Positions 2,416-60,612 of a DNA stretch of 64,000 nt are shown here, piece by piece. The position numbers were made by a program, and so were the translations under genes. Below the pieces are notes generated by a model. That model ran no database searches, was not told the origin of the DNA, and was given only the letters and a program-made list of their open reading frames with translations. Origin of the DNA: Cyanidioschyzon merolae (lineage: Eukaryota). Positions within the stretch are counted from its first letter, which is position 1. Every line of letters starts with the position of its first letter. Location: the NCBI GenBank assembly GCA_000091205.1, contig AP006494.2; one strand, written 5' to 3'.

Positions 2416-4017
2416 TCACTCCCATTCTATTGTTCCGGGCGGCTTACTCGTGACGTCATAAACAATGCGATTCACGCCACTGACCTCGTTCACAATTCGC
2501 AGTGAAATTCGCCGCAGCACCTCGAAAGGAAGAGGATACCAGTCGGCAGTCATGTAATCCGAGGTAGCAACCGCTCTCAGCGCAATGACCTCTTCGTATG
2601 TCCGAAAATCTCCCATGACTCCTACAGCTTTGCTGGAAAGGAGCACAGCGAATGCTTGTCCAATCTGTTCATACAGCCCTGCACGGCGCAATTCATGCAG
2701 AAAAATAGCATCTGCTTCGCGCAGTTTGTTCAAACGTTCGGAAGTAATCTCACCGAGAACACGTATGGCCAATCCCGGTCCAGGGAAGGGGTGACGATAG
2801 ACAACCTCCGCCGGTAAGCCGAGCACTAAGCCAAGCTTACGAACCTCATCCTTAAACAGATATCGAAGCGGTTCAATGAGTTTGAGCCGCATTCGTTGTG
2901 GCAGACCCCCGACGTTGTGATGCGTTTTGATCGTGGCACTCGGGCCCTTGTGCGATATGGATTCGATCACATCCGGATACAACGTGCCTTGGAGCAAAAA
3001 ATCGGCTGAGATTTTTCGCGCCTGCTCCTCGAAGACCTTGATGAACTGATTGCCGATGGTCTTGCGTTTCTCTTCCGGATCGGTAACCCCTGCTAGCGCA
3101 TCCAAAAAGTGCGTAGATGCATTAATACAATCAACCTGAACATGCATTTGGTCTCTCAGCATCGCCATCACGTCAGTCGCTTCATTTTTGCGCAAAAGCC
3201 CGTTGTCCACAAAGATTCCGCGAAATCGATCTCCAATCGCCCTGGACACGAGCAGCGCTGCGACCGTGGAGTCGACGCCACCGCTCAGCGCACCGACAAC
3301 GAGCGCATGCTCTCCTGTTTGCTCGCGGATTGTCCGAATCGCTTCTTCGAGAAACGCTTCCATGTACCAGTCACCTCTGCAGCCGCATACTGCCCGGCAA
3401 AAATTAGCCAGCACTTCCGTACCGTGCTCAGAATGACTCACCTCCGGATGAAACTGTAGTCCATATATAGGTGCAAGCACCGATGCATGCGCGTTCGGCT
3501 GCCCGTACACGGCAGCGTAGTTGCAGTTTTCCGTGCGGGCAATGGGGTAAAAGCCCTCGGGCAGCGAAATCACCCGGTCACCATGACTCATCCAGACCGA
3601 GCAGGAAGTCTTGAGGCCGTGAAATAGCGCGCCACCGTCAGCAGGATCTTCGACTACCTGGAGAGTGGCATGTCCGTATTCTCTCTTATCGCCGCACTCC
3701 ACCTTCCCTCCGAGCTGGTACGCAATCTCCTGCATACCGTAGCAAATTCCCAGTATAGGAATACCAAGGGAGAATATGCGCGCGTCGAGGTGCGGTGAAT
3801 CAGACTCGTAAACAGACGCAGGGCCACCAGACAGAATCAAACCCTTCGGTTTCAGTTCCATCAGGCGCTCTGGTCCAACATCGTAAGGGTGAAGCTCCGA
3901 GTAAAACCCGATGTCCCGAAGGCGCCTCACAATCAGATGCGCGTACTGGCTCCCAAAGTCGAGGACCACGAGTAGATCGTGCCCCGCGTGGATCGAGTTC
4001 TCCAACGGCTCTGTCAT
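2416..4017 (-). CDS. guaA: GMP synthase (glutamine-hydrolysing), bacterial-type two-domain form
   Basis: 533-aa uninterrupted ORF. N-terminal class-I glutamine amidotransferase region ([27 protein letters not shown]...GICYGMQE...HPEV), ATP-pyrophosphatase P-loop ([14 protein letters not shown]) and the C-terminal dimerisation domain ending PPGTIEWE. This is a full-length match to the GMPS family. Confidence 0.9.
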
Positions 4018-4094
4018 ACGAATGTTCAGAAGTGTGGGTGTTCAAGCTGCACCCGCGGTACAGTTGTCGTTGCGTTCCTGCGTTTCTCGGCGTC

Positions 4095-5447
4095 TGCGTG
4101 GTGCACCCACATCGGATTAAGGTGGAACGATGTATTTCGCATCCTGGTCCAGCCTTTCGATTCCCTCCGAACTTTCTTTCTCGGTGTACTGCCTCGGTAT
4201 CCAAATTGCACCATCAAGCGATTACGGATTCTTATGTAACTTTTGGATTCGCTGTCACCCTTTTTCGGAACTGTCTCTTCGATACGTTGCCGCCGGAGTT
4301 CATTACGTCACCGGTATCAAGTTGCTCCATGACACACACGAGGAGAAGTTCGTACACTTCTCCACAGCATTACCTACTTCTCAGGCACAGGAATCCATTC
4401 TTCCGTTTTCCTTGCAAACGGCAAGCTCAAATCACGCTTTCCTCAAGTTTTCGGTGTTTCTGTCTCGGAATATCTCGCAGGTGCAGCAATCGGTGCCGCA
4501 AGACTGACGGGAGCAAGAAATCGATGTCGACCCTTGACGACTTGTTCAATAGCTGAGGCCGGAAGTGCACTGAACTACTCACGCCGAAGAGTCGATTCCG
4601 TTCGAAAGGAAAATCTCCCTCTCTTTGTGGACATCCTCGAAGCGGCACTCGGCAGCAGCATGACGTGGCTCAATGGAACTGCACCCCAGGGCTCTTGTGT
4701 ATTCTGGTTCCATGCCAAAGGGTCTTGGACTCGGACGATGGTCATTGCAGCGATCGCTTCTTCAAGAACGCGCATCACGGATTCGCAGGAAGAGAGCGAA
4801 GACGAATCGTCCTTGCTCGAATTGATCTCCTGTCTGACTATTCCTCCCGGTTCTTTTTCACCATAGACAACATCGCTTTCCACGAATCCCGTATCAAACG
4901 GGACGGCGCGGACCTGCGCATGCCGCGGACAGAGAACTCGCCGATGGCACCTCCTTGAACAGGCTCGTAAGTCTTGGGTACTGCAGTCGGCGCGGAAACG
5001 GCGCTCGATATCGAGGTGACCATGCTGCTCCCGTGATGGGCATTGACTGAGCGCTGAATCAAGAGCTCATATGCGACAGGGCGGCGCTCGGAAGCTGACG
5101 TGTGGAGGAGAGATCGGAGCACCTGCGCACCGTCAAGCGTGATCGCTGCAAATGGCGCTCGTGGGCTCAGTGCAAAGAATGTGACAACGGCAAGTGAGGC
5201 ACTGATCGCGGTCTCCGCATGAACATGAAAAGCGTTCACTTAAGCTGGAAGTAGCGAAATCGAGGCAATAGCGCTGCAATCAATTTTCCTCCGCTGTTTA
5301 GAAGGAGCTGGAGGAAATAGAGAGACCTGCGTATTTCACGCCCAAACCAAGAGAGGCGAAAAGGAAGCATTAGCAGAGAGAGCTCGCCAGGCAGGTGTTG
5401 ATGGCATTGGAAAGAGACTCAAACTTTAGAGTGTGCGCCCGCAGAGG
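4095..5447 (+). mobile_element. dispersed repeat family A, copy 1 (about 1.35 kb); internal ORF frameshifted
   Basis: Near-identical to 24612-25992. ORFs 4130..4507 and 4534..4866 are identical to 24649..25026 and 25053..25385. The 3' end carries the shared terminal motif ctcaaactttagagtgtgcgc. It begins 78 bp upstream of the guaA start codon. Confidence 0.8.
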
Positions 5448-6046
5448 AGGATCGCTCCCAATTTATTCCAAAATCGCTGGTGGACTCAGAGGATTCTGCG
5501 TAGCGATGTTTCCTTCGCAAATGCAGACAGCGGTCCATCCGATGGCTGTTATCGGAAATCTTTCGTCCTCCTCGAGCCGACCACCATCGGGACATATGCA
5601 AGGTGTCCTTTCTAGATTATGTCTTGAGGCGTTCTGGATCAGGCCCCTGTTCTATCAGTGAACACTGTTCGCTGTTTGGAAGAACACGGAAGTGTCCAAG
5701 TCGGCAATGGGGCCGCCTCCTGCTGCAAGATAGGATCTATGCATCCAAAAGACTTTAGTAAACTGTGATGATCCTCTAACTTAAAGAAAGCTTCTAGGCT
5801 AGCGTTCGTGCTTGCACTTGGGTCTCTTTGTGCTGTCAGGGAGAGCGCAGACGTCCGAAGGACTCGAGTCTCCTGCATCGTCCACTCTCATGAAATTCGC
5901 GGCAATCGCGACATCGCGCGAGTTCCGATCTCCCTGCAAGCATCCTATACCCACCAGGCTACCTGATTGAGGGTTTGCTATTGCTCTTTCTGCACGGGGA
6001 ACGGGTTGAAATATACACCAAAAACGCTGCTTGACTACTGCCAGTA

Positions 6047-14271: not shown

Positions 14272-14689
14272 TCGAGTTCAGCTCCGTCGAACGCTGTCCT
14301 CCGGGGCAGCGCTGACTCGTGCTTCACGTGCTTAAAGCTACAACGCAGACCACAGTTTTACAGTTCAAACTTGTTTACTGCACAGGCCTTTTATCCAGGC
14401 TGCGCGAGTCACTCTAAGGATCTCAGCTTCTGTTGCGATGCAGCTGTCCTTAACTGTCAACCTTTGTTCCCGTTCAAACGGTCTCGGCGTGGGTGCGTAG
14501 CAGGATAACAGCTTGCTTTCACACCGGCCACGGCAATAGTCTCTAGAGATACGTCAAGAACTTCCGCTGCAGTTCAAAACAGATGCCCGCTGATCCCAGT
14601 CACCACTGAAGCAGCAAATCTTTGCTCTGCATAGAAACGCGCTCGCGGAGACAAGGGCTTTTAGTTACGCCATTTGCACTCTACCCCCA

Positions 14690-15175
14690 GGTGCGTGTCA
14701 TCAAATGCTTTTTCGCTGTTTAGAGCAGACGCGTTCAAACTGCATTCTTTTGAAGAAATAAAAACCCAAGTGAACGGAATTGATATAGAAGTCGGGGATC
14801 CTGGAGTGCCTTCTTTGTCAGTTTCGACAAGAAAATGGCAAAAATTCCTCTTCCCGCCAGCCATCGAGGAAATAAGAGCAAGTGACGAAGGAAAAAAGAA
14901 GAAACAAAGGTGAGCCAGACGAGAAAAAGTGTTCGCCCGACGGGACGATGACGAGACTAATGGCACAGAGGGCGCGAGTTCCAGCAATCCTTGCGATGAT
15001 GAGTTCCACCAGCCGCGATAAATGCAAGCAGTTCGTGGATTGATACTTCAACACTGTTATTAGTATCAAACGTTGCGCGGTTCTGAAGAAGAGACCCGCG
15101 GAGCTGAACCGATCGAACTCTGTGAGGCATCCTCTAAAGCTCGAAGTGTGCAAGGAGAAACTGAAAACGATAGCA
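14690..15175 (+). repeat. dispersed repeat family F, copy 1 (about 0.49 kb, diverged)
   Basis: About 75-80% identical by eye to 17010-17500 and to the reverse complement of about 45470-45960. Shared strings include gtgtcatcaaatgcttttt, aatggcacagagggcgcgagttc and gctcgaagtgtgcaaggagaa. Confidence 0.6.
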
Positions 15176-15549
15176 TAGGATCAGTCACAAAAGTATGGGA
15201 GGCGTCCGCGCGTGGATATTTATTTATCCTAGGTGAGGTTGGAACATTTTTCTGTGTCACTGACATGCGTAGTATGCCGAAGCTGTAAACGTAAAAGTAT
15301 TTCGGAAAAATCTCAAGGCAGGAACAGTGCAAGCAGTTTGGTGTTACATTTTAATATTGCGCCTCTATCGTGGCGCGCTCAATTTCCAGAATACATTTAC
15401 GCAACTCAACCGCTGTTTCCAGGTGGAAACCTATTTGGCGTGGAGCACCCGCAGTAACCAACTTGAACTTGCGCGGTCTAGTTTCCGGGGGTGCTTTGCG
15501 TTCCCTCAGTTTGCTTCGCTGCCTTCGAAGCTCGTGCACTGGGTCTTAA

Positions 15550-16203: not shown

Positions 16204-17009
16204 ATACTTTTCTTGGCTTCGCGAGCGTACTACGTACTGTTCATAGCGGCTTCTTGCGGGATCATGGGCCCGGAAAAGGACCGTCAAAGATTCATTTATA
16301 TGCTCCAGCTCCTTTGATGGTGCAAGATCGGTGCTTTGAACCAGAGTCACCCCGGATGTGCGATTGCTGCCGCAACCCTGAACTAGGCCAATGCCCTTCC
16401 TCAAACTTTAATGTGTGCCATTAACCTTGGGCAAGTGTTTTCTCTATGGCGTAAGGGATAGATCTGTTCCAGAGTGTGTCGCTGTGACATACTCCGTTCA
16501 CTTCGATCCTTTACTGCTGTGCTCAGATGGTCGCGAGGCATCATATCTTGCGCTGAATTCACTGCATGTCTAGTGCGATGGCTCGTGCCCGATATAAGTG
16601 GTCGTCCTTTTTTTGGATGTGCAATCACAGGATTAGTTATGTGTGCGGTTGCAGATCTGTTGCTTTCCGCCAGTATAAAAAATCTGCGCGCTTTCCATTT
16701 TCATTCTAAGAGCTGAATACCGATGTTGTCAAGCCTCTCGCAGATTCGACGTAAAGGTTGACAGATGTTTTCGCGTAGCGCTAGCTATATTCGTCTGCTT
16801 CGCATTTGCTGTCCAGGAACTCAATCTGGTACAGTAAAAGAGCGCAGGTACAGTCCCCGTCAAGACGTATGCAACTATCAATTGTATGCCAGATGGTAGG
16901 TGGGTTCTCCGCGTGCGTTTCTGTCTCGAATCGTCTAAGCTATATGACTCATAGGTGGATGCACGCATTCGGTACGAGCGCATGCACCTTGTTTTAGTCT
17001 TTCACCTCA

Positions 17010-17500
17010 ATTGCGTTCCATCCCCAGCCGTGTGTCATCAAATGCTTTTTAGCGATTTGTACCAGATGCATTCAAAGTGCGTTCATCTAAAAAGAATATA
17101 AAACCATGGAAGAGGTATGCACACGGAAATCAGGAATCCTAGAGATTTGTCATCACCGGCTGCCGGCAAACAATGAAAAAATCCTCTCCTCGATGTTACT
17201 CGAGCAAAGACAAGCGAATGAAGAAGAAGATGGTGATGAGGGGATATAGGCGAGAAATCGTGCCTGGACGACGGGATGATGACAAGACTTCGGTTGAACG
17301 GAGGGCACGACTTCGAGGACTCCTTGCAGTGGTGAGTACAATCAGCGGCACAGCAGGCATGGACTTCGTGAAACGAGATTCCAACGCTGCCATCAGTATC
17401 CGACGATATGCTGTTCTGAAGACGAGACCCGAGCAGTTGACGTGATCCGACTTTGTTAGGAGCCTCTTACGCTCGAAGTGTGCAGGGAGAAGCTGAAGCC
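17010..17500 (+). repeat. dispersed repeat family F, copy 2
   Basis: See the family F copy 1 entry. It lies directly upstream of the partial B copy. Confidence 0.6.
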
Positions 17501-17559
17501 CGGAGCACAGTCCTGTCCAAAAAGGCTGGGAAGCGTCCGTGGGTGGATAGTAACGTTCC

Positions 17560-18218
17560 CGAATCGCTCTCCAGCTTGGATCTTCCTTCCGATACGTGTT
17601 TCCTTGGAGACGATATAATGTACCAGAAATCCTCCATCGAACGGATAGGCGCCCTCTTCATAGTGCAGCGAACAGCGCCTTCGACGAGGTATCGCTCAGA
17701 AGACGCCCGTGATCTTTTTTGGACCGCACCGGGCGCGGAAACGGTGACGGGCACTGCGGAGGGCGTCCTTTGCTCTCCGAGGGCGCGTGCCGAGCGCTGG
17801 TGCGAGCGTTCACGTGACGCATGGCAGGCCTCGGAGGACAATTTGAGATGGAGCTATATGAACACGAGGCCACAGCGAATTGTCATCGATGCGCAAGGCG
17901 CAGCGTGGATAGGCACGAAGAAGATGAAAGAGCCAAGCGAAGCGTGGATCGCGAATAGCGCCGGTGCACGCGATGCGTTGACAACACCCGGAAGGAGCGG
18001 GATTGGGACGTGAGCGCGGCCACATGCATCCTTCGACTGCTGAAAGTGAGGCTGGCACCATATGAGGGACCGGCGCTTCAAATGCTGGAGGTAAGATATA
18101 GGAGAATGATGCAGTCGCGGAAAAATCCCACAAAGGCTGGTGTTGATGCCAGTTGGAAGAGGCCAAAATTTTAGAGCGTGCATCTGAGTTAGAGGGCCAG
18201 TTGTATGTCATTCTGACG
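17560..18218 (+). mobile_element. repeat family B, partial copy (3' half including the conserved terminus)
   Basis: ORFs 17453..18013 and 17810..18211 are near-identical to 20563..21177 and 20974..21438. It ends with ggccaaaattttagagcgtgcatctgagttagagggccagttgtatgtcattctgacgtgg. Confidence 0.8.
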
Positions 18219-18383
18219 TGGGTCTAGAGGTCGAGGTCATGAAAAATATGTCTCGCCTGACAAAGACGAGGTCACAGAGCCAGGCTGGCCTCATGCAGAG
18301 CCGCTCCCGAATTCGCCATACTCCCCTTCGATACCAAGTGCTCGTGCGAGGCGGCTACGAGACGCGCCCCATACGTGAGGCGC

Positions 18384-19988: not shown

Positions 19989-20029
19989 TCATAGGGCACC
20001 CCTGCAGGATATCTGCGAAACCCATGTAA

Positions 20030-21345
20030 ATTAAAATGTAGTATGGAATTGCGCGCTCTGCTCCCGTCTTTCAATTTATTCCAAACACTCTTTACATACG
20101 CAACCTCAACACCACAAGTGCAGCAATAAGGGACCAAGATTCATATGCGCTTTAGGATTCTCGGTTGTCATTTCGTTGCGGATCCTTCGACTCCTTCCCG
20201 CCGGAACTCTTGATGTTAGCGGAATCGTGATGGTTCGTGAAGCCTTCAATCAAGGCTTCGTAAATTAATCGACGTCATGACCCAAATCATAACTAAACGC
20301 CTCCTCGCTTGGCCTTTCCTTACGTATAGCATGCTCACATCGCGCACACTCCAGGCTTTCTATGCCTCTGTTTCAAGGTCAATGGTGCGCGCAGCAATTC
20401 GCACCGCTGGGTTGACGACGGAAAATACCTGACGATGACTGCTGCAGACTTGTTTACGAGCTCGAGCCAAAAGTTCACTGATCGTCTCATGTCATATAAT
20501 CGATTACTTCCGCAACACGACTCCTCCTCTTTTCGTTTCCATCAACGAAACGGCATCCGGCTGTGTCGAGATATCTCCAATGGGTATGCCCCCGGAAACT
20601 CTCGTATCCTCTGTTTGCATCGGGAAGAGCCGTGGAATCCAACTTCGGTCACTGCAGCGGTCGCTGCCAGTGGAGACAGCGCCACGCTTTGCACGAAGGG
20701 AGCGTAGATGGGTTCAAATTTCTCGACTGGCTCTCCAGCTTGGATCTTCCTTCCGATACGTGTTTCCTTGGAGACGATATAATGTACCAGAAATCCTCCA
20801 TCGAACGGATAGGCGCCCTCTTCATAGTGCAGCGGACAGCGCCTTCGACGAGGTATCGCTCAGAAGACGCCCGTGATCTTTTTCGGACCGCACCGGGCGC
20901 GGAAACGGTGACGGGCACTGCGGAGGGCGTCCTTTGCTCTCCGAGGGCGCGTGCCGAGCGCTGGTGCGAGCGTTCACGTGACGCATGGCAGGCCTCGGAG
21001 GACAATTTGAGATGGAGCTATATGAACACGAGGCCACAGCGAATTGTCATCGATGCGCAAGGCGCAGCGTGGATAGGCACGAAGAAGATGAAAGAGCCAA
21101 GCGATGCGTCGATCGCGAATAGCGCCGGTGCACGCGATGTGTTGACACCACCCGGAAGGAGCGGGATTGGGACGTGAGCGCGGCCACATGCATCCTTCGA
21201 CTGCTGAAAGTGAGGCTGGCAGCATATGAGGGACCGGCGCTTCAAATGCTGGAGGTAAGATATAGGAGAATGATGCAGTCGCGGAAAAATCCCACAAAGG
21301 CTGGTGTTGATGCCAGTTGGAAGAGGCCAAAATTTTAGAGTGTAT
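20030..21345 (+). mobile_element. repeat family B, full copy (about 1.3 kb); left arm of an inverted pair
   Basis: It is the reverse complement of 31415-32775: ORFs 20435..20707 and 32093..32401 are identical, as are 20563..21177 and 31623..32237. It encodes decayed fragments of a protein with the motifs GYAPGNS and CFLGDDIMYQKSSIERIGALF. Confidence 0.85.
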
Positions 21346-22186
21346 GCCAGCTTTAGTGGACCTGTTCCATTGTATTTTTACATGAGTGTACTGTACAAGA
21401 ATATCGCATCGGGGTGAGCCGGCGCAACGAAGCTGCATGACGATGTGGCCCGCTTAGCGGATGGAATCCGATAGATGACAACAGAGGGGCCCTCTTCCAT
21501 CGAAAGTGCGCTGCTATGTTGGTTAAATACGATATTCTCTGTTGATTCCGCGACGTACAGCGAAGCGCGCTCAGTATTTTGGAACAAACCCTCAAAGTCG
21601 AACGGGGCTTGTCCACGACCCAGTGCCCGAGACGCGGCTGGGAAGGATTCTGTTGTTTTGGAGAGATTTACATGCTCGCTGCCCGTTCTCTGCAATTGTC
21701 GAGGTTCGAAGACAAGCCGCTTGACTCTTCGCGGCTGAACCTGAAGTTGAGAAATGCCCCTGCGTGCGATGGTCCATTATTTGAATAAATTCCTGCAAAC
21801 AACGCCGAGTCTCCCCATAAAAGTGGAAAAGCAGTTCGGGGTCGAATCACTGGTGCTGTGGCATACGAAATGGACTACGTTGGATAATCTCTTAGGAAGC
21901 TTTTTGGATCCTACTCTAGGCATTCTCAAGTCACTGCGCTCGTGAAAGAAGCGCCAGATTTGTGAACACCAGGCCTAAAACGCAATGCCTGGGAACGCGA
22001 TAACAGTAGAAGCGCGGTTTCTGGTGGCGGATCGTGGGTCACTAAGATGAATCATATTTATCCCTACTTGTACAGATTGTTCAGGTGGATTCGTGGCAGC
22101 CGCCAGCACGACGATCTCGAACCGCCAAAACCTGCCAACCTACGACGCTGTCGCACAAGAGACTGGGCACCTTCTCCAACTGCTGG

Positions 22187-24611: not shown

Positions 24612-25992
24612 TCTGCGTGGTGCTCCCACATCGGATTAAGGTGGAACGATGTATTTCGCATCCTGGTCCAGCCTTTCGATTCCCTCCGAACTTTCTTTCT
24701 CGGTGTACTGCCTCGGTATCCAAATTGCACCATCAAGCGATTACGGATTCTTATGTAACTTTTGGATTCGCTGTCACCCTTTTTCGGAACTGTCTCTTCG
24801 ATACGTTGCCGCCGGAGTTCATTACGTCACCGGTATCAAGTTGCTCCATGACACACACGAGGAGAAGTTCGTACACTTCTCCACAGCATTACCTACTTCT
24901 CAGGCACAGGAATCCATTCTTCCGTTTTCCTTGCAAACGGCAAGCTCAAATCACGCTTTCCTCAAGTTTTCGGTGTTTCTGTCTCGGAATATCTCGCAGG
25001 TGCAGCAATCGGTGCCGCAAGACTGACGGGGGCAAGAAATCGATGTCGACCCTTGACGACTTGTTCAATAGCTGAGGCCGGAAGTGCACTGAACTACTCA
25101 CGCCGAAGAGTCGATTCCGTTCGAAAGGAAAATCTCCCTCTCTTTGTGGACATCCTCGAAGCGGCACTCGGCAGCAGCATGACGTGGCTCAATGGAACTG
25201 CACCCCAGGGCTCTTGTGTATTCTGGTTCCATGCCAAAGGGTCTTGGACTCGGACGATGGTCATTGCAGCGATCGCTTCTTCAAGAACGCGCATCACGGA
25301 TTCGCAGGAAGAGAGCGAAGACGAATCGTCCTTGCTCGAATTGATCTCCTGTCTGACTATTCCTCCCGGTTCTTTTTCACCATAGACAACATCGCTTTCC
25401 ACGAATCCCGTATCAAACGGGACGGGCGGACCTGCCATGCCGCGGACAGAGAACTCGCCGATGGCACCTCCTTGAACAGGCTCGTAAGTCTTGGGTACTG
25501 CAGTCGGCGCGAAAACGGCGCTCGATATCGAGGTGACCATGCTGCTCCCGTGATGGGCATTGACTGAGCGCTGAATCAAGAGCTCATATGCGACAGGGCG
25601 GCGCTCGGAAGCTGACGTGTGGAGGAGAGATCGGAGCACCTGCGCACCGTCAAGCGTGATCGCTGCAAATGGCGCTCGTGGGCTCAGTGCAAAGAATGTG
25701 ACAACGGCAAGTGAGGCACTGATCGCGGTCTCCGCATGAACATGAAAAGCGTTCACTTAAGCTGGAAGTAGCGAAATCGAGGCAATAGCGCTGCAATCAA
25801 TTTTCCTCCGCTGTTTAGAAGGAGCTGGAGGAAATAGAGAGACCTGCGTATTTCACGCCCAAACCAAGAGAGGCGAAAAGGAAGCATTAGCAGAGAGAGC
25901 TCGCCAGGCAGGTGTTGATGGCATTGGAAAGAGACTCAAACTTTAGAGGGTGCGCCTGACATAGGTGAGTTCGTCAGTTCCACTTCATTCCA
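24612..25992 (+). mobile_element. repeat family A, copy 2 (about 1.38 kb) carrying an intact 220-aa internal ORF on the minus strand (25094..25756)
   Basis: See the copy 1 entry. In this copy the 3' end extends into the shared terminus ...tttagagggtgcgcctgacataggtgagttcgtcagttccacttcattccaacacacgtg. The 220-aa ORF has no family I recognise. Confidence 0.8.
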
Positions 25993-28099
25993 ACACACGT
26001 GTACCGATGTTTTGCTCAGAGCAGTTTTTTAGAACATGCATACCAGTAAACGTTCTTTATTATTGTTTTTCCTCGGAGGCAACCGATGAAAAGAATGTAC
26101 TCTCTAGATTGGAGGGCGCTCGCTCGAAGAATTTGTACCACCACGCAGGCTACTAGTGGACGACCTCACTTATACAAGCTAGTCACTCTGTGTTCAGCAT
26201 GTGCACAAAACATGTTATTCGCAGTCCTTATCCTATAAGATGTGCACCCAAGATAGAGCTCAGCAAGCTCCTTATATATGGCCTCCTACAGATCAATCTA
26301 GTCCATTCTACATGTTCTCTAAGAATATTGGTAGAGTAGCCAAAGGATATGAAATTTGAACACTACTGGTACTAAGGATGATTAAGAGATACGGATGCGT
26401 AAAGAGACAGGATCGCTTTTCAGGAACATCTTCTCGCGTTTAATATCTTTGTACTGGTGTCATTCTGAAACGATAATGTTTATTGCAGCAGACTCTGTTG
26501 CTCGACTCATTGACGAATACTTTGTTCGGGAGAGTCAGTAGAAATGTGAATTGGTAATCCTGAGGGCAACCCGCCTTTAATTATGAAGAGACAATCGATT
26601 AAGGTGACATCATCAGTCGAAATGGCGATTCAGTTGTGTAGTCGCGAAAAAAAAAGCTCGTAATTGTTATGATCGACCAACTCATCCTCCTTTTTCGAAG
26701 CACATGTCATGGGTTCTCCATTCCAGATTGTTCTCCCACATTCTTAGGTAATATCCCTGTCTATAACTTACCACCGGCCAAGAAGTAAGCAGCCACTATT
26801 GGTGTTAAGCTGCTCCTTGTGCCAGCCTATTTTTCTATTTTCAGTCTGGCCGTTGGTGCCTTCTTAGTTGTCGCGTGCTAATACATCGCCCATGATTGAA
26901 TGCACAAGTCTAACTCATCCGTGACAGTTCGCTTCGACGAATCGTTCTTCGAGAGGTTAGTCTCTGCCTAAACCAGCCATGAGCTTCCGGGTTGCTTCTC
27001 TGCTCCTGAGCGGGACTGAGCGAAAGGTGCGCTCTGGTAGTTAGGCCCGCTCGCGATGCAAAAAGTGTCGAAATCTTACGTCAAGACTTGGAGATGTAAA
27101 TATGGAAAAGGCGAGTTTCGATCCCACTGTCTGCTCAGTTCTTCTGAATCCCAGAGCAAAACAAACAGATACTGGGCGAAGCGACCAAAACCATGCCACA
27201 CCGCAAAATAAATTGGAACGCTAAGAAAGAGTTGGTCCCTGAGAGCAATTATGAAGCATCCATTCAACTACTCGAAGAGCAGCGGCGGAGCTCCTTCATG
27301 GTTTCTCCGTTGCACCGAGGAGATGGAAAGCGAATTACAGGCACAGAGAAGACCGACGAAAACGTAGTCTGCATTCACTTCATGGAACCGAGGTCTGAGT
27401 CGAGTAATGAGACTCAGCTGCAACCGTTCAAGGCAGACGAAGAGAAACACTCCAAGGTGAGCGTGGATTCCGAGTTGAAGGGCGTCATGGCCGTCGCCGT
27501 GCCTCAAAATAAAGAGGACGGGACCAAAGACCGTACCGGAATGCAGATGACGCTACTTCATTTCCCAGGGCTCGGTACGATCGACATTCGGGAATCATTC
27601 ACTCCAGAATGGAGAGCGGTGGGTTAAATGATGGCGTCGGGAATGATCTCGACGCTCTGAGCATTGTATGGAGGAGAAGAGGGTGCTTAGCGCAGTTCAT
27701 TCCGAGCGTGGATGAGCGGTCAATATACCATGCGGGTGCGTCTTGACAGGAAAAAAATGAGACCAAGCTGGTGACGCCTACGCGTTCAGATGTACCGAGG
27801 CCAGAACGGTATATTCGTCTCCCAGTGCAGTCAGCTGGAGAAGGAAATGATCGATAAGTCGCGTCGACTCGTACAAGCCTATACCGCTAGATATGCAGTA
27901 CCGCGCTTGGACTGCACTCCTGCTACTTCAGAGGGAGCGTAGAGCGAGTGCCTAAATCGATTTTGTACGCTTCTCGTCGACAGGTTCAGGACGAGCTACA
28001 CGGATCCTGAGCATGTGTGCTCGATGACACAGATAGAATTGCACAGCGTGAATCAGAGATGGTTCCATTATATGTCGCATGGTAGGTCGAACAAATGTA

Positions 28100-28420
28100 A
28101 GACGAAGAGCAAATAAAAGGTCGGAGGCATTCGCTGCTGTAGTTCCACCAGCAGCAATGCGCTCAAGCGCGTTTTGCGCAGAGACATCAACGACTCGATC
28201 ACGATCCGAAAATGTTTCGTGCTTCTGGAGCGTCCAGTAGCTTTATGTTGAGCGAACTGCCGATGGAATCTTCTAGTGCTCGGTGCGGACACTGAGCAGG
28301 GACGTTGTAGACTAGCGATGGGAAAGTGTATGGCCAAGAGAGAGCATTCGATTCTCGACTCGACGAAGGCACTAGTGTGGTACGGGTCAGCAATCCGGCA
28401 TGGCTCGAGCGCCTTATACA
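28100..28420 (+). repeat. degenerate relic related to repeat family E
   Basis: gaaaatgtttcgtgcttctggagcgtccagtagctttatgt compared with E-arm ggaaatgtttcgtgcgttcggagcgtccagcggtttgtgt; the flanking similarity is weaker. It lies inside an AT-richer tract with no supported gene (26.0-29.0 kb). Confidence 0.4.
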
Positions 28421-30885: not shown

Positions 30886-31414
30886 GATGATCGCGTTGCG
30901 ATAGGCTGAGGTGCTCGTTCAAGAGCTACGGCCCGAGACCCCGTGCCCCGCGAACGAATGCTCTCTCGTAGAGTTCTCATGAGAACCGCGGCTGAACTTT
31001 GAGCAATAGTAGCCTAGGCTGTCACCAAAGAAACAATAAACATCGGTAGTTTTCGAATCGTACCCACATACAGCACCTACGTGGCCCAATATGAGAAGTC
31101 GGCGCTGCTGTAGACGCTATCACCGAATACCTGGCTATGAGCCAGTCTAGCAAATCTCACTGTCTGCAACGCAGGCGGCCTGCGCTTTCGTCTTCCCTGA
31201 TTGCAGACGGCTCTCGCGCATTCAGGGTTGGTTTGCTTGAAATTGTAGATCTAAGCCCTAGAATATGTTCTTTTACCGCATGCGCGTATGAAGTGGAGTG
31301 GTCCATCTAGACCGTTCTGGATGCGTGCCGTTCGCCTTCGAACAGGGATCAGTAGGCACGCTCGCTCAGATGCGAAAACGTTTACGCTAGTTCGAAAAGA
31401 AGAAGCAGTCTACA

Positions 31415-32775
31415 CCACGTCAGAATGACATACACCTGGCCCTCTAACTCAGACGCACGCTCTAAAATTTTGGCCTCTTCCGACTGGCATCAACACCAGC
31501 CTTTGTGGGATTTTTCCGCGACTGCATCATTCTCCTATATCTTACCTCCAGCATTTGAAGCGCCGGTCCCTCATATGCTGCCAGCCTCACTTTCAGCAGT
31601 CGAAGGATGCATGTGGCCGCGCTCACGTCCCAATCCCGCTCCTTCCGGGTGGTGTCAACACATCGCGTGCACCGGCGCTATTCGCGATCGACGCTTCGCT
31701 TGGCTCTTTCATCTTCTTCGTGCCTATCCACGCTGCGCCTTGCGCATCGATGACAATTCGCTGTGGCCTCGTGTTCATATAGCTCCATCTCAAATTGTTC
31801 TCCGAGGCCTGCCATGCGTCACGTGAACGCTCGCACCAGCGCTCGGCACGCGCCCTCGGAGAGCAAAGGACGCCCTCCGCAGTGCCCGTCACCGTTTCCG
31901 CGCCCGGTGCGGTCCGAAAAAGATCACGGGCGTCTTCTGAGCGATAACTCGTCGAAGGCGCTGTCCGCTGCACTATGAAGAGGGCGCCTATCCGTTCGAT
32001 GGAGGATTTCTGGTACATTATATCGTCTCCAAGGAAACACGTATCGGAAGGAAGATCCAAGCTGGAGAGCCAGTCGAGAAATTTGAACCCATCTACGCTC
32101 CCTTCGTGCAAAGCGTGGCGCTGTCTCCACTGGCAGCGACCGCTGCAGTGACCGAAGTTGGATTCCACGGCTCTTCCCGATGCAAACAGAGGATACGAGA
32201 GTTTCCGGGGGCATACCCATTGGAGATATCTCGACACAGCCGGATGCCGTTTCGTTGATGGAAACGAAAAGAGGAGGAGTCGTGTTGCGGAAGTAATCGA
32301 TTATATGACATGAGACGATCAGTGAACTTTTGGCTCGAGCTCGTAAACAAGTCTGCAGCAGTCATCGTCAGGTATTTTCCGTCGTCAACCCAGCGGTGCA
32401 AATTGCTGCGCGCACCATTGACCTTGAAACAGAGGCATAGAAAGCCTGGAGTGTGCGCGATGTGAGCATGCTATACGTAAGGAAAGGCCAAGCGAGGAGG
32501 CGTTTAGTTATGATTTGGGTCATGACGTCGATTAATTTACGAAGCCTTGATTGAAGGCTTCACGAACCATCACGATTCCGCTAACATCAAGAGTTCCGGC
32601 GGGAAGGAGTCGAAGGATCCGCAACGAAATGACAACCGAGAATCCTAAAGCGCATATGAATCTTGGTCCCTTATTGCTGCACTTGTGGTGTTGAGGTTGC
32701 GTATGTAAAGAGTGTTTGGAATAAATTGAAAGACGGGAGCAGAGCGCGCAATTCCATATCAAATTTTAATGCTAT
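31415..32775 (-). mobile_element. repeat family B, full copy; right arm of the inverted pair
   Basis: It is the reverse complement of 20030-21345. Its inner end has cgcacgctctaaaattttggcctcttcc, the reverse complement of the shared terminus. Confidence 0.85.
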
Positions 32776-33672
32776 GCCAGTAAAGTGTGCGCTGGAACTG
32801 CACGCGGGCGCATTGCGCAACCTCGAGAGCCTCGCAGGATGGCGATGACCGAAGTTGAAAATTGCTCGCTGACAATCAAAGAAAGAGAGTCCGTGACGTC
32901 CACCGGTACAGGTGTCGAACACTTGTTCTGTTTCTGGGGCTTAATATTCGGTGCAATGCATCGATCTGGGGCTCTGTGAAATTCGATAGCATGAATTGCG
33001 GGAAATAGCGGTCTCGGATACAATTTTTTCCGTACCCCCAAGCGAGGACGCCTCTAGGCTGATGTGCGTCTCCTATCGCCTCTTAATGGACCGACGAAGC
33101 CTTAATAGTTGTGCAAGGGCCGTGCAACGCGGGTTCTCCCGCAGAGCACAGCGCAGGCGACGAGACGCAGCAATCGCTCCGAACAGAACCCGCAGCGGTG
33201 CCTCCAGTTTCGCAAAGAACGATTGAGCCAGGCTCTACACCATGGGCATGGATGAAACGATCAAACGCTTTCACTTCACGGGGTGGCTGCTCCGCAAGCA
33301 CTCGAAGCTGGGGACATGCAAAGCGGAGCCGAAATCTCCGCCCTGGTTGTAGAGAGCTGCGGCACGGCGGGAGGATGCCTCCGGTGAGCTCCATCGCTCT
33401 CGCCGAGCAGACAACATCACCGATTGTTTTGATAGGAGGACCTTTGGTTCCAATTACATAACTGCGAACTGGCGAATAATGTCGGCAATCGGGAGAATGT
33501 TCTCGATGGCGAACCGGTGCTGCCGCAAAGCTCACCGGTAGGTTAGTAGCCTCGGGCGGTGATTGCTGTTTCAATCGGAGCGATTGAGGACGCGCTTCCC
33601 GTGCTATCATTGCTACTAGAAGACCTTGTGTAGTTCCGCACGCGCTGTGCTGATTGCATAGCGTCATCAATC

Positions 33673-37668: not shown

Positions 37669-38931
37669 CCGTACCTTGGCGACAGCAGTCCAATAAGAAG
37701 CTGCGCTGGCTGGTCTTGCGGCACTGCAAACTACCCTCAGAGCACATTGGCAGGTAGAGCGCGCCCCTGCGACGTCCGAGAATCACCCGCCTCTGTACGC
37801 GCGCGAAAACAGAGCGCTGCGACCGGAGTTGCGATTTCGATGCCGCGCAGCGCCTCGACGGCAACGCGGGTTATCAGCGTAATCGTGCGCGGCAACTGTT
37901 CATGTGCGTAGTTCAACGCGATTCCTCATCGCTCAGGCGGGTGCGTCTACGCGGAGCGGTGTTTATTCGTTGCTCGATCATGCAGGGGAGTGCGAGCGGT
38001 GGCTTCCGAGTACGAGATGGAGCACAATTACGTTTTGCTTCTTGTGTGGGGCCCTTCGCACGGAAGATTTTGAAAGTTCACCGTTGAGAGCGGCCTACCG
38101 TTCGGATGTTGCCCTCAGAGTGTAGATGGTCATCGCTAGCGATAAATGTGGATGCTCCTCGCGTGTAGAGCTTGCTGGCATGGACGGAAACCTGAGTGTT
38201 TATCACGGTTTTCACATTCACGCTTCAACCTTGACTGTCGATCTTAGGGCGGGATTTGAAGAGATTGCAGCGCCGATTCGCGATAAGCGCTCAAGCGTCG
38301 TGTAATCCAATCTACCAAATAATTTGCAGCATTTCGGGACTGATGTTTCCTGCCAGGACACCTTGACAGGTGCTCGTCTAGAAACGTGCATGATGATTGG
38401 CTTCATTGCTGTTGCCACTGAGCAAACTTCGGGATAATAGTGCCCTCATGGTTTCTCTTCTGAGTCCAAACCGAAAAGGGATCCCGAAGCGGACAGCGTG
38501 CATCAATTGGTGCACTTTTTGGTTAGTAACGGATCTGGCGCGGGGCGTGGAACTCGAAACTTTCTGGCGCTCGTCTGGTTAACCACAATCGCAGCCGATC
38601 CCGATATGGGTACAGCAAAGCAGCTCAGTCTCCGCGAGGCGATCAAAGCAGGATGCGTCCGGCATAGCCGCACGTGCCCTCCTTTGTCTCGATGCCCAGA
38701 GAATCCTCGAATAAATCTATCCTTTTTTCTTAGGCAAATAATTACCTGGCGTCGTTGGAATGCACACGAGCTTGGATTGCAGCGGCAGTCGTTTTCCCAA
38801 TTTTCTTGCGAACCGCGCATCCTGGAATATGGTTACATGTACCGATTTCGCCTCAGGAAGAAAGCCGTCCGCTTTGACGAAATCATGCTCGTTATTTTGA
38901 CCACAATGGCGGCTTTGAAGGGCCTCACTTT

Positions 38932-40312
38932 TTCCGATTAACGCACCACACTTTGTCAGACAAGATTTTTACGGGTCCATCGATTTTCCTCCAGCGCCCG
39001 CTTCCGAGTTGGGGTTTCTTCGCACAATCATCGATACCTGCTGTTGGCGGCTTGTTCCGAGACTGCCTACCTTTCCCTTATCTTGTCTCTGGCTATGAGT
39101 ACACCGGTCTCTCGTGCCTCATCAACTCCCAGATCTGATGTCGATGGATGCTGATGGCAGTGCAAGTCCCGATTACACCGCACGGGGATATTGTCGACGC
39201 ATTTCGTGCATTGGCAAATGTTGCAATGTATGCTTCATTTGCCATATTCACCTTCTTTGTATACAGCCCCTGTGCTCGCTTCGTAACGGCAACACAAGGC
39301 TATGCGTAGATGAGACCTTATCCTCACCACAACTCATCCTCCAAGCGCCACCGCGTGGCGCGTGAGCACTTGATTCAGCGCTCGATACATGCCCCCGAAG
39401 GGCACAGAGTCCTCCCTGGATGCTCTTCGCGACATCTGCAACCAGTGCTGCACCGCACGACGACGGGTTTCTTCTAGGCGACAAACTCGGCGAGTACGCT
39501 GTCCAACGGGCGCGTAGGCGCACATTGTCCCATTCGATAGCGGATTTGTGGAGAGCGATGTCGTCTAGTGTGAAACAAGGACCAGAAGAAATATCGACGC
39601 TGGAGATCGAGTCCAGAATATTCTCTCCATCCGCGCTCCCTTCGTGCAATAGAGTTGCATAGTACCCATTGGAAGCGATCATTAGATAGCAAAGGCGAGT
39701 CCGAGACCATTTTGGATGCAAAGCGAAGCGACGGGAGCCTCCAGGAGCATATACCATGAAAGGTATCAGGCTGTGTGGAATCCCGCGACATCGATGGACA
39801 CAAGGCAACATGGTTTGTCTTTCTGACGGACATTATCATCGGATATGACACAATCTGTGAACTTTTGGCATGAGCTCCTGATCAAGTCGTCAAGGAACCT
39901 GGTCGAGTACTTATCATCGTCAATGCAGCGGAGCGCGTCCCTGTGCCCGCGAGCTGCCTTGAAACAGTCAGACCGAAAGCTTGGGGAACTCATGATTTGG
40001 ATATGCTTGATGCAGGAAAAGCGGAGGAATGGAGGCCTTTGGATAAGAACTGCATAATGGTATCGGTTATTTTACTGACGTGGGGTTGAGGGCGTCGCGA
40101 ATCATCGTGGTTTCGACGAATTAACGGATTCTAGCGACAGGAAGGGACTGCTCCGAAAAGATGACCAGTATCGTAAACCAAGGAAAGAGTGCGTAAGTCC
40201 GCATTGATGTGCTTCGAAGGTCAAGGCTGTTCATCTAGAAAAAGCTGGGGAAAGAACGGAAATACAGGAGGAGAGCGAAGAATTCCGTGTTCTGTTTTGA
40301 TCTGACATGAGA
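38932..40312 (-). mobile_element. repeat family C, copy 1 (about 1.38 kb); left arm of an inverted pair
   Basis: It is the reverse complement of 43843-45224. ORFs 39248..39811, 39114..39365 and 39845..40057 are identical to 44152..44901, 44784..45035 and 44088..44300. It encodes a transposase-like fragment on the minus strand. Its inner end is ...gttttgatctgacatg. Confidence 0.85.
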
Positions 40313-42376: not shown

Positions 42377-42554
42377 GACGGACCGTCATATTCCAAACCC
42401 AAAGATGGAAAATTCATGTTCCGATAGAATTTCTCATAGAGCATAGTGCATGTTGCTGCGCGAGGCGGCCGCATGTATAGGACTGGGGAGGCGTTCGACT
42501 GTTCCAGGCTGCATACAGGAGGTGAAGCAGCACGGCTGCTGAAATGACGCTTCT

Positions 42555-43709
42555 CTAAGCGCTTCGAACGGGCAATTTCCATGACGCGGCGATTTCATCG
42601 AGCGCAGGCTGAATTTCTTGATACTGAAACTTAAGACCGCTTTGCAACAGACGCTTTGGGAGCACGCGTTGGCCCTGGAGCACAAGTTCCGCCGCTTCGC
42701 CAAGAATCAGTTGAAGTGTGAAACTGGGTACCGGTAGCCAGTTCGGGCGTTTGAGCGCTCTTGCAAGTGAATCGCAAAACTTTTGAAACTGAACTGGGGT
42801 TGGCGCCGTGACGTTGTACACACCTTGAAAATCGGGTGATTCCAGCTCGTGCATGATAATGTTCACCAGATCTTGAATGTGTATCCACGATATCCACTGG
42901 CGTCCAGATCCAATCGTTCCACCTATGAACAAGTTAAAGAGCGGAAGCATTCGGCTCAAAGCCCCCCCATCCGGGCCGAGTACTATGCCAAATCGATTGA
43001 TGACTGTCCGGATTCCCGCATCTTGAGCAGCTGCTTCCCACTTCTTTGCGACTGATGCTAAAAAGTCCGTCCCTATCGAAGGCGAATCCTCGTCGAACGT
43101 TTCTACTTCAGATGTACCGTAGTAGCCAACAGCAGATGTGGAGATGAGAACCTTTGGTTTCCTATCAGCATGATGAACAGCTCGGACGAGCTGAAGGGTC
43201 CCGTTCACGCGGCTCTCCAGAATGCGCCTCTTGCGCTCTGCCGTCCACCTACCTTCTGAAATGGGTTCGCCAGCTAGATTAATTATAGCATCACTTCCAG
43301 CCACTGCCTCCACGACCTCCTTTGCCGGCGCATCGGCAGCAGTCGCTTCAAAGTATATTGCTTCCACCTTATAGTTAAAGGTTTTGCGGGCTTTCTCAGT
43401 ATCACGCGCCAAAAGCGTCACCGCCTTCCCCGAACCGAGAAGTTTGCGCACAAGCGCCCGGCCAACAAAGCCTGAGCCGCCACTCACAAGCACGGTTTTC
43501 GCCCTAGTATCGGATGCCTCAATGCGTAGACTATTTTTGAAAGCCCGTCGAGCACAGCGATTTGACGATTGAAGACAGTTTCTAGGCTCTTGTTTGCACC
43601 AGTCACCTACGAAGCTCGAGACACGAGGACATGCTCCAGCAAAAGCAGGCGCGTGCAAAAGCGGTCGCTGCTGATTTGGCAGAGCCAACAAGCAAAAGAA
43701 AGACAACAT
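42555..43709 (-). CDS. SDR39U1-type NAD-dependent epimerase/dehydratase (YfcH/DUF1731 family) with N-terminal targeting-like extension
   Basis: Rossmann motif VLVSGGSGFVGRAL and a full-length YfcH-like architecture with the C-terminal DUF1731 region (QQRVLPKRLLQSGLKFQY). A hydrophobic, Arg-rich leader of about 75 aa precedes the conserved core. Confidence 0.75.
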   Translation of the reverse strand: MLSFFCLLALPNQQRPLLHAPAFAGACPRVSSFVGDWCKQEPRNCLQSSNRCARRAFKNSLRIEASDTRAKTVLVSGGSGFVGRALVRKLLGSGKAVTLLARDTEKARKTFNYKVEAIYFEATAADAPAKEVVEAVAGSDAIINLAGEPISEGRWTAERKRRILESRVNGTLQLVRAVHHADRKPKVLISTSAVGYYGTSEVETFDEDSPSIGTDFLASVAKKWEAAAQDAGIRTVINRFGIVLGPDGGALSRMLPLFNLFIGGTIGSGRQWISWIHIQDLVNIIMHELESPDFQGVYNVTAPTPVQFQKFCDSLARALKRPNWLPVPSFTLQLILGEAAELVLQGQRVLPKRLLQSGLKFQYQEIQPALDEIAASWKLPVRSA

Positions 43710-43842
43710 TCTTTATCCAGTCCAACAAATCGGACGTGGCTATGCGCTCTGTTCACACACGAAAGATAAAGTGTACACCTGTGCAGGGTTAAGAAAAATT
43801 TGACGTTTGTTCACGCGCTTCAGGGAAGCTACTTCCATGTCA

Positions 43843-45224: not shown

Positions 45225-45469
45225 AATCCAAATTGCGCGCCAGTTTTCATGGCGCCCCTGCGCATGATTTCTGACACGCGTTCTGTATTTTCAATTCAGA
45301 GCTACAGATCCCCGATCTCCACGCACGCTCGGTCTTGGCTCTCTTCCAATGGTTTGTAGGCGCAAATGTTCGGCGACATCGACGTCCGCCGTTTGTGGGC
45401 TCTTGGGTGCTTACTTCGCAGACAGATTTGGTTCTCCGTTACATGCTAATTATTGTTAGCACAACGAAA

Positions 45470-45960
45470 AACGATCTACCACATTAGGGTGCATGAGAAC
45501 GCACATGTCCAGACGCCTCCCAACCATTTTTGACAGGGTGCTTGCTATCAGTTCCAGCTGCTCCTTGTACACCTCTGGAATGGTAGGCTGACCCGCAAAG
45601 TCGGATCTTGTCAGCTCTTCAGGTCTCGTCCTCATAACCAAACATCGTCTGAAATTGTTGGCGGCGATGATGGCCCGGTTCAGGAACTCCAAGCGTTTAT
45701 TGCCACTGGTGGAACGGACTTGTGCAAGGAGTCCTCGAACTCGCGCCCTCTGTGCCATTCGCTGCTCTTTCAGCTCGCCGTGCTTTCCTATCGTCCAAGT
45801 GCTCCGCTGGCTTCTCTCGATCTCGAACTCGTGAAGTGTATAACCCATTGCATTCCTTATTTTCGAAAATGAACGCACTCGTTTATGCCGTTGGGTAGGG
45901 ACCTTCTCGGATGGATAAGGACTTATGGAAGAAAGACAAATACGCCCCGGTATCACCGTG
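45470..45960 (-). repeat. dispersed repeat family F, copy 3
   Basis: Its reverse complement contains aatggcacagagggcgcgagttcgaggactccttgca, matching F1 and F2. It lies about 250 bp outside the C right arm. Confidence 0.55.
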
Positions 45961-57412: not shown

Positions 57413-57461
57413 ACGCTGAGCACCTCCCTAACTATACTGGGAGCGAGCTGTTTTTCGAGAC

Positions 57462-59143: not shown

Positions 59144-59499
59144 TCGATATTTGAGTCACTATACAGTCCAAGAAGAGAGATATAACGAACGGTGTTTGGA
59201 GAAATCAGCCGACCACACCGTGTAAGGCGACACCACGATCGAATTTGCTATCTATATATATTCAGTGGTTCAACCGTTTCCCGGTCTTGCGTGTCAATTT
59301 TCCGAAATTGTTTAGATGTAGTCTCGACATTCGATGTGCGACAACATTTGCATATGTGATTATACGCATTTTTCGAGCTCTCGGCGTTGTTTTCGTTGTG
59401 GCTCCTTCGTCTCTTTGCAGATGGTAACTTTACGTCACCAGAATAAAAATGAGTCGTGATGTGTTCGAACAAGAGTTCGTAAAACAATATATATCATGA

Positions 59500-60612
59500 A
59501 CCGAGTCGAACGCACACTGCATCACTCTTCGCTTTTTTCATGTACAGCAATCTCAAATCACACATTCTTCAAGTATTAGGTCGTTCTGTTTGAGGCCAAC
59601 TGGTATGTGCAGTGGTTCGCGCTGCCAGATCCACTACTGAAAAAACTTGACGTCGCCCCTTGACACGCTCCTCACGCGCTCATGCCAGGAGTTTTACTGA
59701 ATTTGTCACATTAAACAATCGATTCTGTTCGCAATGCAAATCCGCCTCTCTATTTGGTCGTCGACGAAACCGGATTCCCCATCAGGTTGATAGGTCTGAC
59801 GGGATATGCTCCCGGAGGCTCTCATCCGTTCCGCTTGCATGGAATAGAGCCTCAGACTCGCTCTTCAATCATCGCGAGGATCGCTTCCAGAGGAGCGTGC
59901 GCCACTGCTTTCCACGAAGAGAGCTTAGACAGATCGAATTTTCTCGAATTGTTTTGCAACCTGGATATTCCTTCTGTTCCATGTTTCATCATGGACGACA
60001 TTGCGTTCCACAAATCCTCGATCGACTGGTACAGTGTGCACATGCGCATGCTGCTGATAGAGTACTCGTCGATGTCATTGTATGCAAGAAGCTCTTGATC
60101 ATAGTGTACTGCGCCGTGCTTAGATACGAAGGAGCGTATTCGAAGAAGCCTTCTATACCCGTCAAGCGTATGCGCCGAGCGATGAAGCACGTGTTGATCC
60201 ACCATAGTGCTGTGCTCGGAGGAAGAGAGGCGGTGCATGTATGATTACGCCTGCCAACAGCCGAGTGTCACCGTTGCGAAAGACGCGTAGAAGCACCATA
60301 CAGGGAAGATGAAATCGGCGAGCGAAGCTTAAATTGCAACTTCCGCCTGTAAAAGAAGTGCGTCACAAAAAGACGGAGGCGCAGAAGATGAGACTCTAAC
60401 GCAGCCATCAACATACTTCGACAGCTGACAACGGTGCCGGAGGGAGAAGAGAGACTGCCATATTTGAAGACCGGGGATGAGATAGGGTAAAAGGAAGCAA
60501 TGGGAAAAAGCCTAAAAAGGATGAAGATGTTAACGCTGGGAAGAAACCTAAAGTTTAGAGTGTGCGTCCGAGTTTGCAGATCTGTTCCAGTTCATTCTGA
60601 CATGGGTGTAAT
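59500..60612 (+). mobile_element. repeat family D (single copy in this window); related to B and C
   Basis: It encodes a decayed protein fragment (59754..60098) with GYAPGGSHPFRLHG and CFIMDDIAFHKSSIDW. Its 3' end (60535-60612) is clearly homologous to the B terminus (..aaagtttagagtgtgcgtccgagtttgcagatctgttccagttcattctgacatggg). The 5' boundary is uncertain. Confidence 0.6.

Follow-up and report, generated by a model that had tools for sequence, protein, structure and literature searches.

The window analysed here, a stretch of 64,000 nucleotides from Cyanidioschyzon merolae, contains eukaryotic genes that are intron-poor and closely spaced, among them those for GMP synthase, PDH-E1beta, RabGAP-TBC, Cdc23/APC8, E2F/DP, DegP and NuA4. 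The closest match to the GMP synthase is a JGI metagenome protein with 100% identity; the next relative shows 77%, and the named relatives, at about 61–63%, are red algae. Scans of the window with Rfam and for tRNAs yielded no hits. In addition, the window harbours repeated elements, here designated A to E, whose ends are given as left and right terminal inverted repeats (TIRs), an assignment that is argued for below.

Family A is represented by two copies on the + strand. A1 (4104..5480) has its left TIR from 4104 (CACCCACATCGGATTAAGGTGGAAC) and its right TIR from 5409 to about 5480; the outer part of the latter has diverged from that of A2 and its terminus is approximate. In A2 (24623..26001) the left TIR starts at 24623 and the right TIR spans 25926-26001 (...GTTCCACTTCATTCCAACACACGTG, followed by TA). 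Three loci belong to family B. The first, B1 (16995..18224, + strand), is a chimeric element with a Fanzor1-derived left half and a B-type 3' half. The left half (16995-17549) derives by internal deletion from a CMe-1A-like Fanzor1 element and corresponds to consensus nt 788-969 and 2835-3081, and the 3' half (17556-18224) is a B-type transposon from model position 697 onwards, with about 98% identity to B over 17556-18221 in the self-comparison. The right TIR of B1 (18155..18224, + strand; profile E 8.9e-22) consists of an inner block GGAAGAGGCCAAAATTTTAGAGCGTGC and an outer part ...GTCATTCTGACGTGGGTC, after which TA follows at 18225-18226. B2 (20020..21388, + strand) carries a left TIR at about 20020-20105 (ACCCATGTAAATTAAAATG...) and a right TIR at 21319-21388, which is B-like in 21319-21343 only; the outer 45 nt are diverged and end in ...GTTCCATTGTATTTTTACATGAGTG before a TA. 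B3 (31413..32782) lies on the - strand, with the right TIR at 31413-31481 and the left TIR at about 32695-32782.

C2 (43832..45280, + strand) begins with its left TIR at 43832 (CTTCCATGTCAGATCAAAACAGAAC), preceded by TA, and ends in a longer, diverged module, approximately ...GATTTCTGACACGCG, at 45280, a terminus that was read by eye. C1 (38870..40312, - strand) is its inverted twin, with the left TIR running downward from 40312 and an approximate right terminus near 38870. The left ends of both copies face inward within 38870-45280 and bracket two unremarkable ORFs (40307-42376 on the + strand and 42555-43709 on the - strand), a layout that resembles a composite transposon. The single D element (59252..60608, + strand) has a right TIR at 60539-60608 (...GTTCCAGTTCATTCTGACATGGGTG, followed by TA) and a degenerate left TIR beside a TA-rich flank.

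The elements of group E are of a different kind. E1 (14671..15365, + strand) is an internally deleted CMe-1A-like Fanzor1 element (14680-14806 and 14959-15213). The 3' part of E3 (45294..45866, - strand) consists of a C-terminal Fanzor1 remnant at 45510-45866 and then the inner block of the module at 45294-45349 (GGAAGAGAGCCAAGACCGAGCGTGCGT). C2 (+) and E3 (-) meet with their right ends, which are no more than about 15 nt apart (45280-45294). The 5' part of E3 is formed by one copy of a 67%-identical repeat, found at 10-388 and at 46219-46597 (- strand), in which no transposase or Fanzor homology was found. A transposase remnant that had been read by eye in this 5' part was supported by neither BLASTP nor tblastn and was dropped.

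Scanning of metagenomes for the pattern gave 30 stretches, 12 of which are true members, mostly the window's own loci in other samples. The only new family among these 12 is a sixth one, F, on a metagenome contig (L023).

The terminal module and its inverted counterpart

In the sequence-only reading, a module of about 70 bp had been noticed at the 3' ends of B1, B2, B3, D, A1 and A2, and our analysis confirmed it as real and non-random at all six sites. The sequence TTTAGAGYGTGCRTCYGAGTT occurs at 18170-18190 (+), 31446-31466 (-) and 60554-60574 (+), with an expectation of 0.01, and GTTCCAGTTCATTCTGAC occurs at 60584 and 25977, with an expectation of 0.06; matches to both halves of the proposed consensus are far above the shuffled-sequence expectation. 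When the six 3' ends were aligned with MAFFT, positional conservation extended up to ...CATGGGTG followed by TA, and an nhmmer profile recovered the six ends from which it had itself been built with E values of 3e-22 to 7e-19. The resemblance is therefore not one of chance matches below 15 nt that lack a conserved position relative to the element ends.

Several details of the module have to be revised. B2 had been described as breaking off after TTTTAGAG; only the near-identity to the ends of B1 and B3 stops there, and a diverged homologous tail, found at E=8.6e-5 by a profile built without B2, continues to 21388. Likewise, A1 does not keep the first 25 nt only, since a diverged continuation reaches to about 5480, weakly recognised by the leave-one-out profile (E=0.11). 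The inner ends of the C elements do contain the sequence that was attributed to them. It is, however, not the 3' module, as these are the left (5') ends of C1 and C2 with respect to the direction of the transposase, and what they carry is an inverted copy.

This last point applies to the family in general. The module had been regarded as specific to 3' ends, whereas profiles of one end match the opposite ends on the opposite strand, so that the module very probably represents one arm of a terminal inverted repeat. With leave-one-out profiles of the 3' ends, the 3' ends themselves were followed in rank by opposite-strand matches to the 5' ends of A1, A2 and C2. A profile made from 5' ends only recognised the 3' terminus of D (60582-60608, - strand) at E 0.014 and, again on the opposite strand, the right end of E1 at E 0.0045; this end of E1 (15260-15365) corresponds to an inverted B-type left TIR and is also found by the DNA profile (E 3e-6). 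When the 5' ends were aligned with the reverse-complemented 3' ends, the blocks CACCCAYGTCAGAAT, TGGAAC, CGC.C.CTCT and TCTTCC proved to be common to both. In addition, the 5' TIR of a further C. merolae-type element (L035) reads TGTCAGAATGAAATGGAACAG; it is matched by the 3' profile at E 1.6e-4 to 3.8e-4 and, by reading, differs from the reverse complement of the D outer block at 1 of 21 positions. Pairwise alignment of the left and right arms within single elements gave no significant score (z <= 1.7). The arms of any one element are too decayed for this, and the case for the TIR therefore rests on the family-level profiles, whose reciprocal searches connect the two ends in the manner of IS630/Tc1/mariner elements.

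An element accordingly starts after TA with the left TIR (CACCCAYGTCAGAAT..TGGAAC...), continues with a pseudogenised transposase containing HTH and DDE_3 regions, and closes with the right TIR, in which the inner part AAGAGNCCNAAANTTTAGAG[N]GTGCG is separated by about 20 variable nt from the outer part GTTCCAGTTCATTCTGACATGGGTG, with TA following. At the right end, TA comes after ...GTG in D, A2, B2, B3 and an element from another metagenome (L036), and after ...GTC in B1. At the left end, TA precedes C2 and D only, the other left flanks being TG or AA; D is the only window element with TA on both sides. No empty site of D was found through the neighbouring gene, D being present in 10 of the 10 contigs examined. 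About 200 nt past B2, at 21571-21604 (- strand), there is a weak match to the outer TIR block (E 0.4-1.2), which is either a solo TIR remnant or due to chance.

Decayed transposases in families A to D

According to the sequence-only reading, the elements were similar in size and different in their bodies. The similarity in size was borne out (1.36–1.46 kb); the bodies, on the other hand, are related, as A2, B3, C2, D and F align from end to end with 50–63% pairwise identity. Weaker matches of 64–70% connect the bodies of A, B, C and D in the self-comparison, and a single DNA profile recovers every copy. Overall conservation is no better in the module than in the body. When the element is ranked by conservation in 20-nt windows, the inner block AAGAGNCCNAAANTTTAGAG nevertheless comes second, behind the catalytic DN/DD motif.

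ORF fragments of the window read ...VVDETGF...GYAPGGS...DDIAFHKS...YSPSL..., and Pfam DDE_3 matches the ORFs of C2 and D at E 5e-5 to 8e-5, which is under the gathering score. D1 (VVDETGF) and D2 (DDIAFHKS) can still be recognised. The region of the catalytic E has decayed, no copy retains this residue, and every copy in the window carries many stops in all three frames. Neither an intact D,D,E triad nor an intact transposase was found among the window copies, which, judged by their reading frames, are relics.

Among 1.84 billion representative proteins, a protein profile of the window fragments matched 296, mostly short decayed ORFs. These also include intact proteins of 313–403 aa with a match to Pfam DDE_3 and, for the most part, HTH domains (HTH_23/32/33/Tc3_2). 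Five intact relatives score 116–142 bits against the NCBIfam IS630 model, for which the cut-off is 100. One of the intact proteins, P0163, was aligned with the window profile by hhalign with a probability of 98.8% (E 6.8e-17), and the spacing from its second D to the E reads DD34E by our own count. Using the intact transposases as tblastn queries, A, B, C and D were matched co-linearly, HTH first and then DDE, with a best E of 2.7e-12; the HTH region upstream of DDE is represented by aa 3-61, 24-108 and 51-111 of the relatives, with matches in D, C and B. A decayed relative, P0130, falls into the same 90% cluster as CME048C of C. merolae 10D, which places this transposon family in Cyanidioschyzon itself. 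As far as can be read from these co-linear HTH and DDE_3 remnants, A to D are decayed autonomous elements. An interior unrelated to transposase, as in MITEs, is found only in E1 (about 0.7 kb, Fanzor1-derived) and not in A to D.

It had been proposed that the elements are recognised in trans; read strictly, this would mean that unrelated non-autonomous elements have only a 3' recognition module in common and are mobilised through it like MITEs or SINEs. One part of this proposal stands, as all window copies are defective, with stops in all frames, so that any recent movement would need transposase supplied in trans; moreover, E1, E3 and the left half of B1 differ internally and are joined to the same end module. 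The other part does not, because A, B, C, D and F align over their full length, because A to D contain co-linear transposase remnants and because the module is present, inverted, at the 5' ends too. For A to D the proposal is already contradicted by these results, and taken as a whole we consider it unlikely.

The alternative that we favour, with a probability of about 0.85, is that the module is the right TIR arm, some 70–90 nt long, of a decayed family of IS630/Tc1/mariner type and that A to D descend from a common ancestor, which would explain their shared terminus. One superfamily with shared termini, as had been suggested, is supported by this; the repeats, which make up roughly a fifth of the window, would be relics of IS630/Tc1/mariner transposons, and there would then be no need for a new superfamily defined by a recognition module at the 3' end. 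The elements agree with IS630/Tc1/mariner transposons in the combination of HTH and DDE_3, in intact relatives that exceed the NCBIfam IS630 cut-off, in the DD34E spacing of P0163, in a size of about 1.4 kb, in TIRs that start with CAC... after TA, and in the TA at most right flanks. They differ in that the window copies are all pseudogenes, that the TIRs are long, strongly decayed and contain two conserved blocks, and that a TA duplication on both sides is not demonstrable for the window elements generally. No specific report of a described Cyanidiales Tc1/mariner family was found in the literature searched.

By analogy with what is established for the superfamily, the HTH domains of the transposase would bind the TIR, the DDE domain would cut at the CAC.../...GTG termini and the element would integrate at TA. 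While homology, the inverted-repeat relation and the anatomy are read directly from the alignments, these three steps are carried over from the known systems. The module may be common to the families both by descent from one ancestral element and by the need to stay recognisable to related transposases. Tc1-like elements of the IR/DR type, such as Sleeping Beauty and Tc3, likewise have long TIRs in which two blocks, one outer and one inner, are conserved. By comparison, the two blocks of the window TIR could correspond to two putative transposase-binding sites, although neither block is evidently a repeat of the other.

Fanzor1 remnants joined to the module

Different bodies with the same end module, as suggested in the sequence-only reading, are not found in A to D. 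They are found in the Fanzor1-derived sequences, i.e. E1, the left half of B1 and E3. Using the CMe-1A consensus and the CMe-1 protein from the supplements of Bao & Jurka 2013 (PMC3627910), these three gave 67–76% nucleotide identity (blastn) and 48–50% amino acid identity (tblastn), with a best E of 1.4e-26. The remnants at 14680-14806 and 14959-15213 (E1) and at 16995-17180 and 17296-17537 (B1) belong to internal-deletion derivatives, in which the 5' UTR and ORF start are joined to the C-terminus with its RDxNAAxNI motif, and both derivatives have the right boundary ...GGGAGGCGTCCGYGSGTGGATA in common. The E3 remnant (45510-45866, - strand) covers aa 607-726 of CMe-1 with 50% identity. About 160 nt past it follows the inner block of the module, with a z of 4.0 (3 of 500 shuffles reach the score) and a profile E of 0.49. 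The architecture of B1 recurs, in a different organism or strain, in the other metagenome element mentioned above (L036, 2501-3916), which contains a Fanzor C-terminus, the transposon body from model position 423 and the module; here, the Fanzor1 C-terminus and the decayed DDE region are fused in one ORF (P0135), and the right TIR ends in ...TTCTGACACCGGTG before TA. A more distant Fanzor1-like coding region lies just downstream of A2 at 27226-28257 (+ strand), corresponding to aa 335-696 of CMe-1 with 28% identity (tblastn E 6e-26).

P0208, an intact, IS630-like transposase relative of 313 aa, is located within a 4-kb element that is present at L049 378-4395 and also at L050 351-4366. Its 28-nt TIRs, CAGGGATGG... 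preceded by TA and ...CCACCGGTG followed by TA, are related to the window TIR. The element also holds an 898-aa Fanzor1 homologue, which matches CMe-1 in BLASTP at E 6e-8, spans the IDPG and NRDGNAAKNI motifs and ends about 90 nt before the right TIR end. A transposase and Fanzor1 are therefore enclosed by one TIR pair in this element, whereas the window contains only C-terminal Fanzor1 remnants beside the module. We conclude that the complete form of the lineage is probably a Tc1/IS630-type element with Fanzor1 between the transposase and the right TIR, which would account for the Fanzor1 remnants joined to the module in the window. The L049/L050 element, from ENA metagenomes, is apparently intact and is a candidate active relative of the window relics.

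Fanzor1-carrying Tc1/mariner elements are an arrangement already known (Bao & Jurka 2013, PMC3627910; Jiang et al. 2023, PMC10530073), and the window elements are new IS630/Tc1/mariner relics allied to such composites. The described composites PUl-1 and PGv-1 (Mariner/Tc1 plus Fanzor1, PMC3627910) resemble L049/L050 in having both genes within TA-flanked TIRs, and they resemble the window in that its C-terminal Fanzor1 remnants lie upstream of the right-end module. In contrast to PUl-1 and PGv-1, the window contains fragments, no copy of which has both genes and in which no guide RNA is evident. CMe-1A / TE-N2_CMe of C. merolae, whose consensus or protein is matched by E1, E3 and the left half of B1, was described as unclassified and without TIRs (Bao & Jurka 2013, PMC3627910); the window derivatives differ from it in being joined to IS630/Tc1-type end modules. 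The CMe-1A Fanzor1 repeats of Cyanidioschyzon-type algae, hitherto unclassified, are thereby tied to ends of this type, which is of use for annotating these compact genomes and for finding Fanzor guide RNAs.

The position of the Fanzor1 remnants raises the question whether a structured guide-RNA scaffold (Fanzor omegaRNA/fRNA) coincides with the module, wholly or in part, so that its conservation would be that of an RNA and not of a DNA site. According to Jiang et al. 2023 (PMC10530073), there is overlap between Fanzor fRNAs and the right TIR. The Fanzor1 gene of the intact relative ends close to the right TIR end, and in E3, E1 and B1 the module is preceded by Fanzor1 remnants. On the other hand, RNAalifold applied to eight modules gave -0.96 kcal/mol with a positive, i.e. 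unfavourable, covariation term, Rfam gave no match, and these two analyses identified no conserved structured RNA over the right end. In addition, A to D possess the module and no Fanzor gene, and the spacer between Fanzor remnant and module differs among E1, E3 and B1. Conservation as a guide RNA is, for these reasons, extremely improbable, and a TIR arm is still the preferred reading of the module.

Near-identical pairs and their outer TIR

Three pairs of elements are almost identical in the self-comparison: A1 4093-5439 and A2 24612-25956 at 99.6%, B2 20030-21343 and B3 32770-31457 at 99.3%, and the inverted pair C1 and C2 at 99.2%. In each pair, identity is lost 45–75 nt before the right terminus, at 5439/25956, 21343/31457 and about 45216/38935. 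It ends directly at TTTAGAG in B2/B3, about 9 nt later in A1/A2 and about 18 nt later in C1/C2. The remaining 45–75 nt are homologous with an identity of about 0.6, as distant as between families, and the outer block of B2 is nearer to those of F and D than to that of B1 or B3. B1 and B3 have the full outer block in common. On the left side, identity extends to the terminus in C, stops 10 nt short of it in B and continues 11 nt beyond it in A, where A1 and A2 share these 11 nt (TCTGCGTGGTG) outside the left TIR.

This pattern might indicate that the outer 45–75 nt are a pre-existing repeated target, beside which a shorter element ending near TTTAGAG was inserted site-specifically; the 99.2–99.6% identity of the pairs up to 0–18 nt past AGAG and the drop to about 0.6 thereafter would fit such a boundary. 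Among the window and the fetched loci, however, no unoccupied outer block was found. Moreover, the outer block has its inverted counterpart in the left terminus of the element itself and a homologue in the TIR of an intact relative, and the fact that B1 and B3 have it in common also speaks against a target, making this explanation highly improbable. A polishing or assembly artefact was rejected as well, because A1, A2 and the junctions between B body and outer TIR recur in independent JGI contigs at 99.2–99.7%, and because the 5' identity boundaries lie at the element edge.

Copies made by simple cut-and-paste should share both TIRs in full, so that something besides transposition has acted on these elements. 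We favour the reading that the bodies of older resident elements were overwritten from a young donor. This could have happened by ectopic gene conversion or by gap repair with template switching, the switch point then being the best-conserved inner TIR block. Efficient homologous recombination is a known feature of the lineage to which Cyanidioschyzon belongs. In the young pairs, the mismatch between body and outer TIR offers a small case in which concerted evolution or template-switch repair among dispersed repeats can be tested. Two metagenome contigs (L020 and L032) join B1 to B2, and the right flank of A1 to the left flank of A2, across the repeat body; they may be assembly chimeras or real recombinants, so that it is uncertain, also for the window, which flanks belong together on either side of a repeat.

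A more specific version would give the right-end module a dual use, as the transposase-binding TIR and as the 3' part of the Fanzor1 guide RNA. The loss of identity would then mark a site-specific break, made by transposase or Fanzor, that seeded one-sided homology-directed copying of the donor body into older residents. We consider this version very unlikely; if true, it would mean that the elements spread by body replacement rather than by cut-and-paste.

A further inverted pair, of 1736 nt, is present at 47092-48827 and 55678-57413, 6.85 kb apart and with 99.65% identity. No TIR module was detected at the ends of this pair. It contains Fanzor1-like fragments (aa 464-675, E 4e-18), and many metagenome contigs break at its edge.
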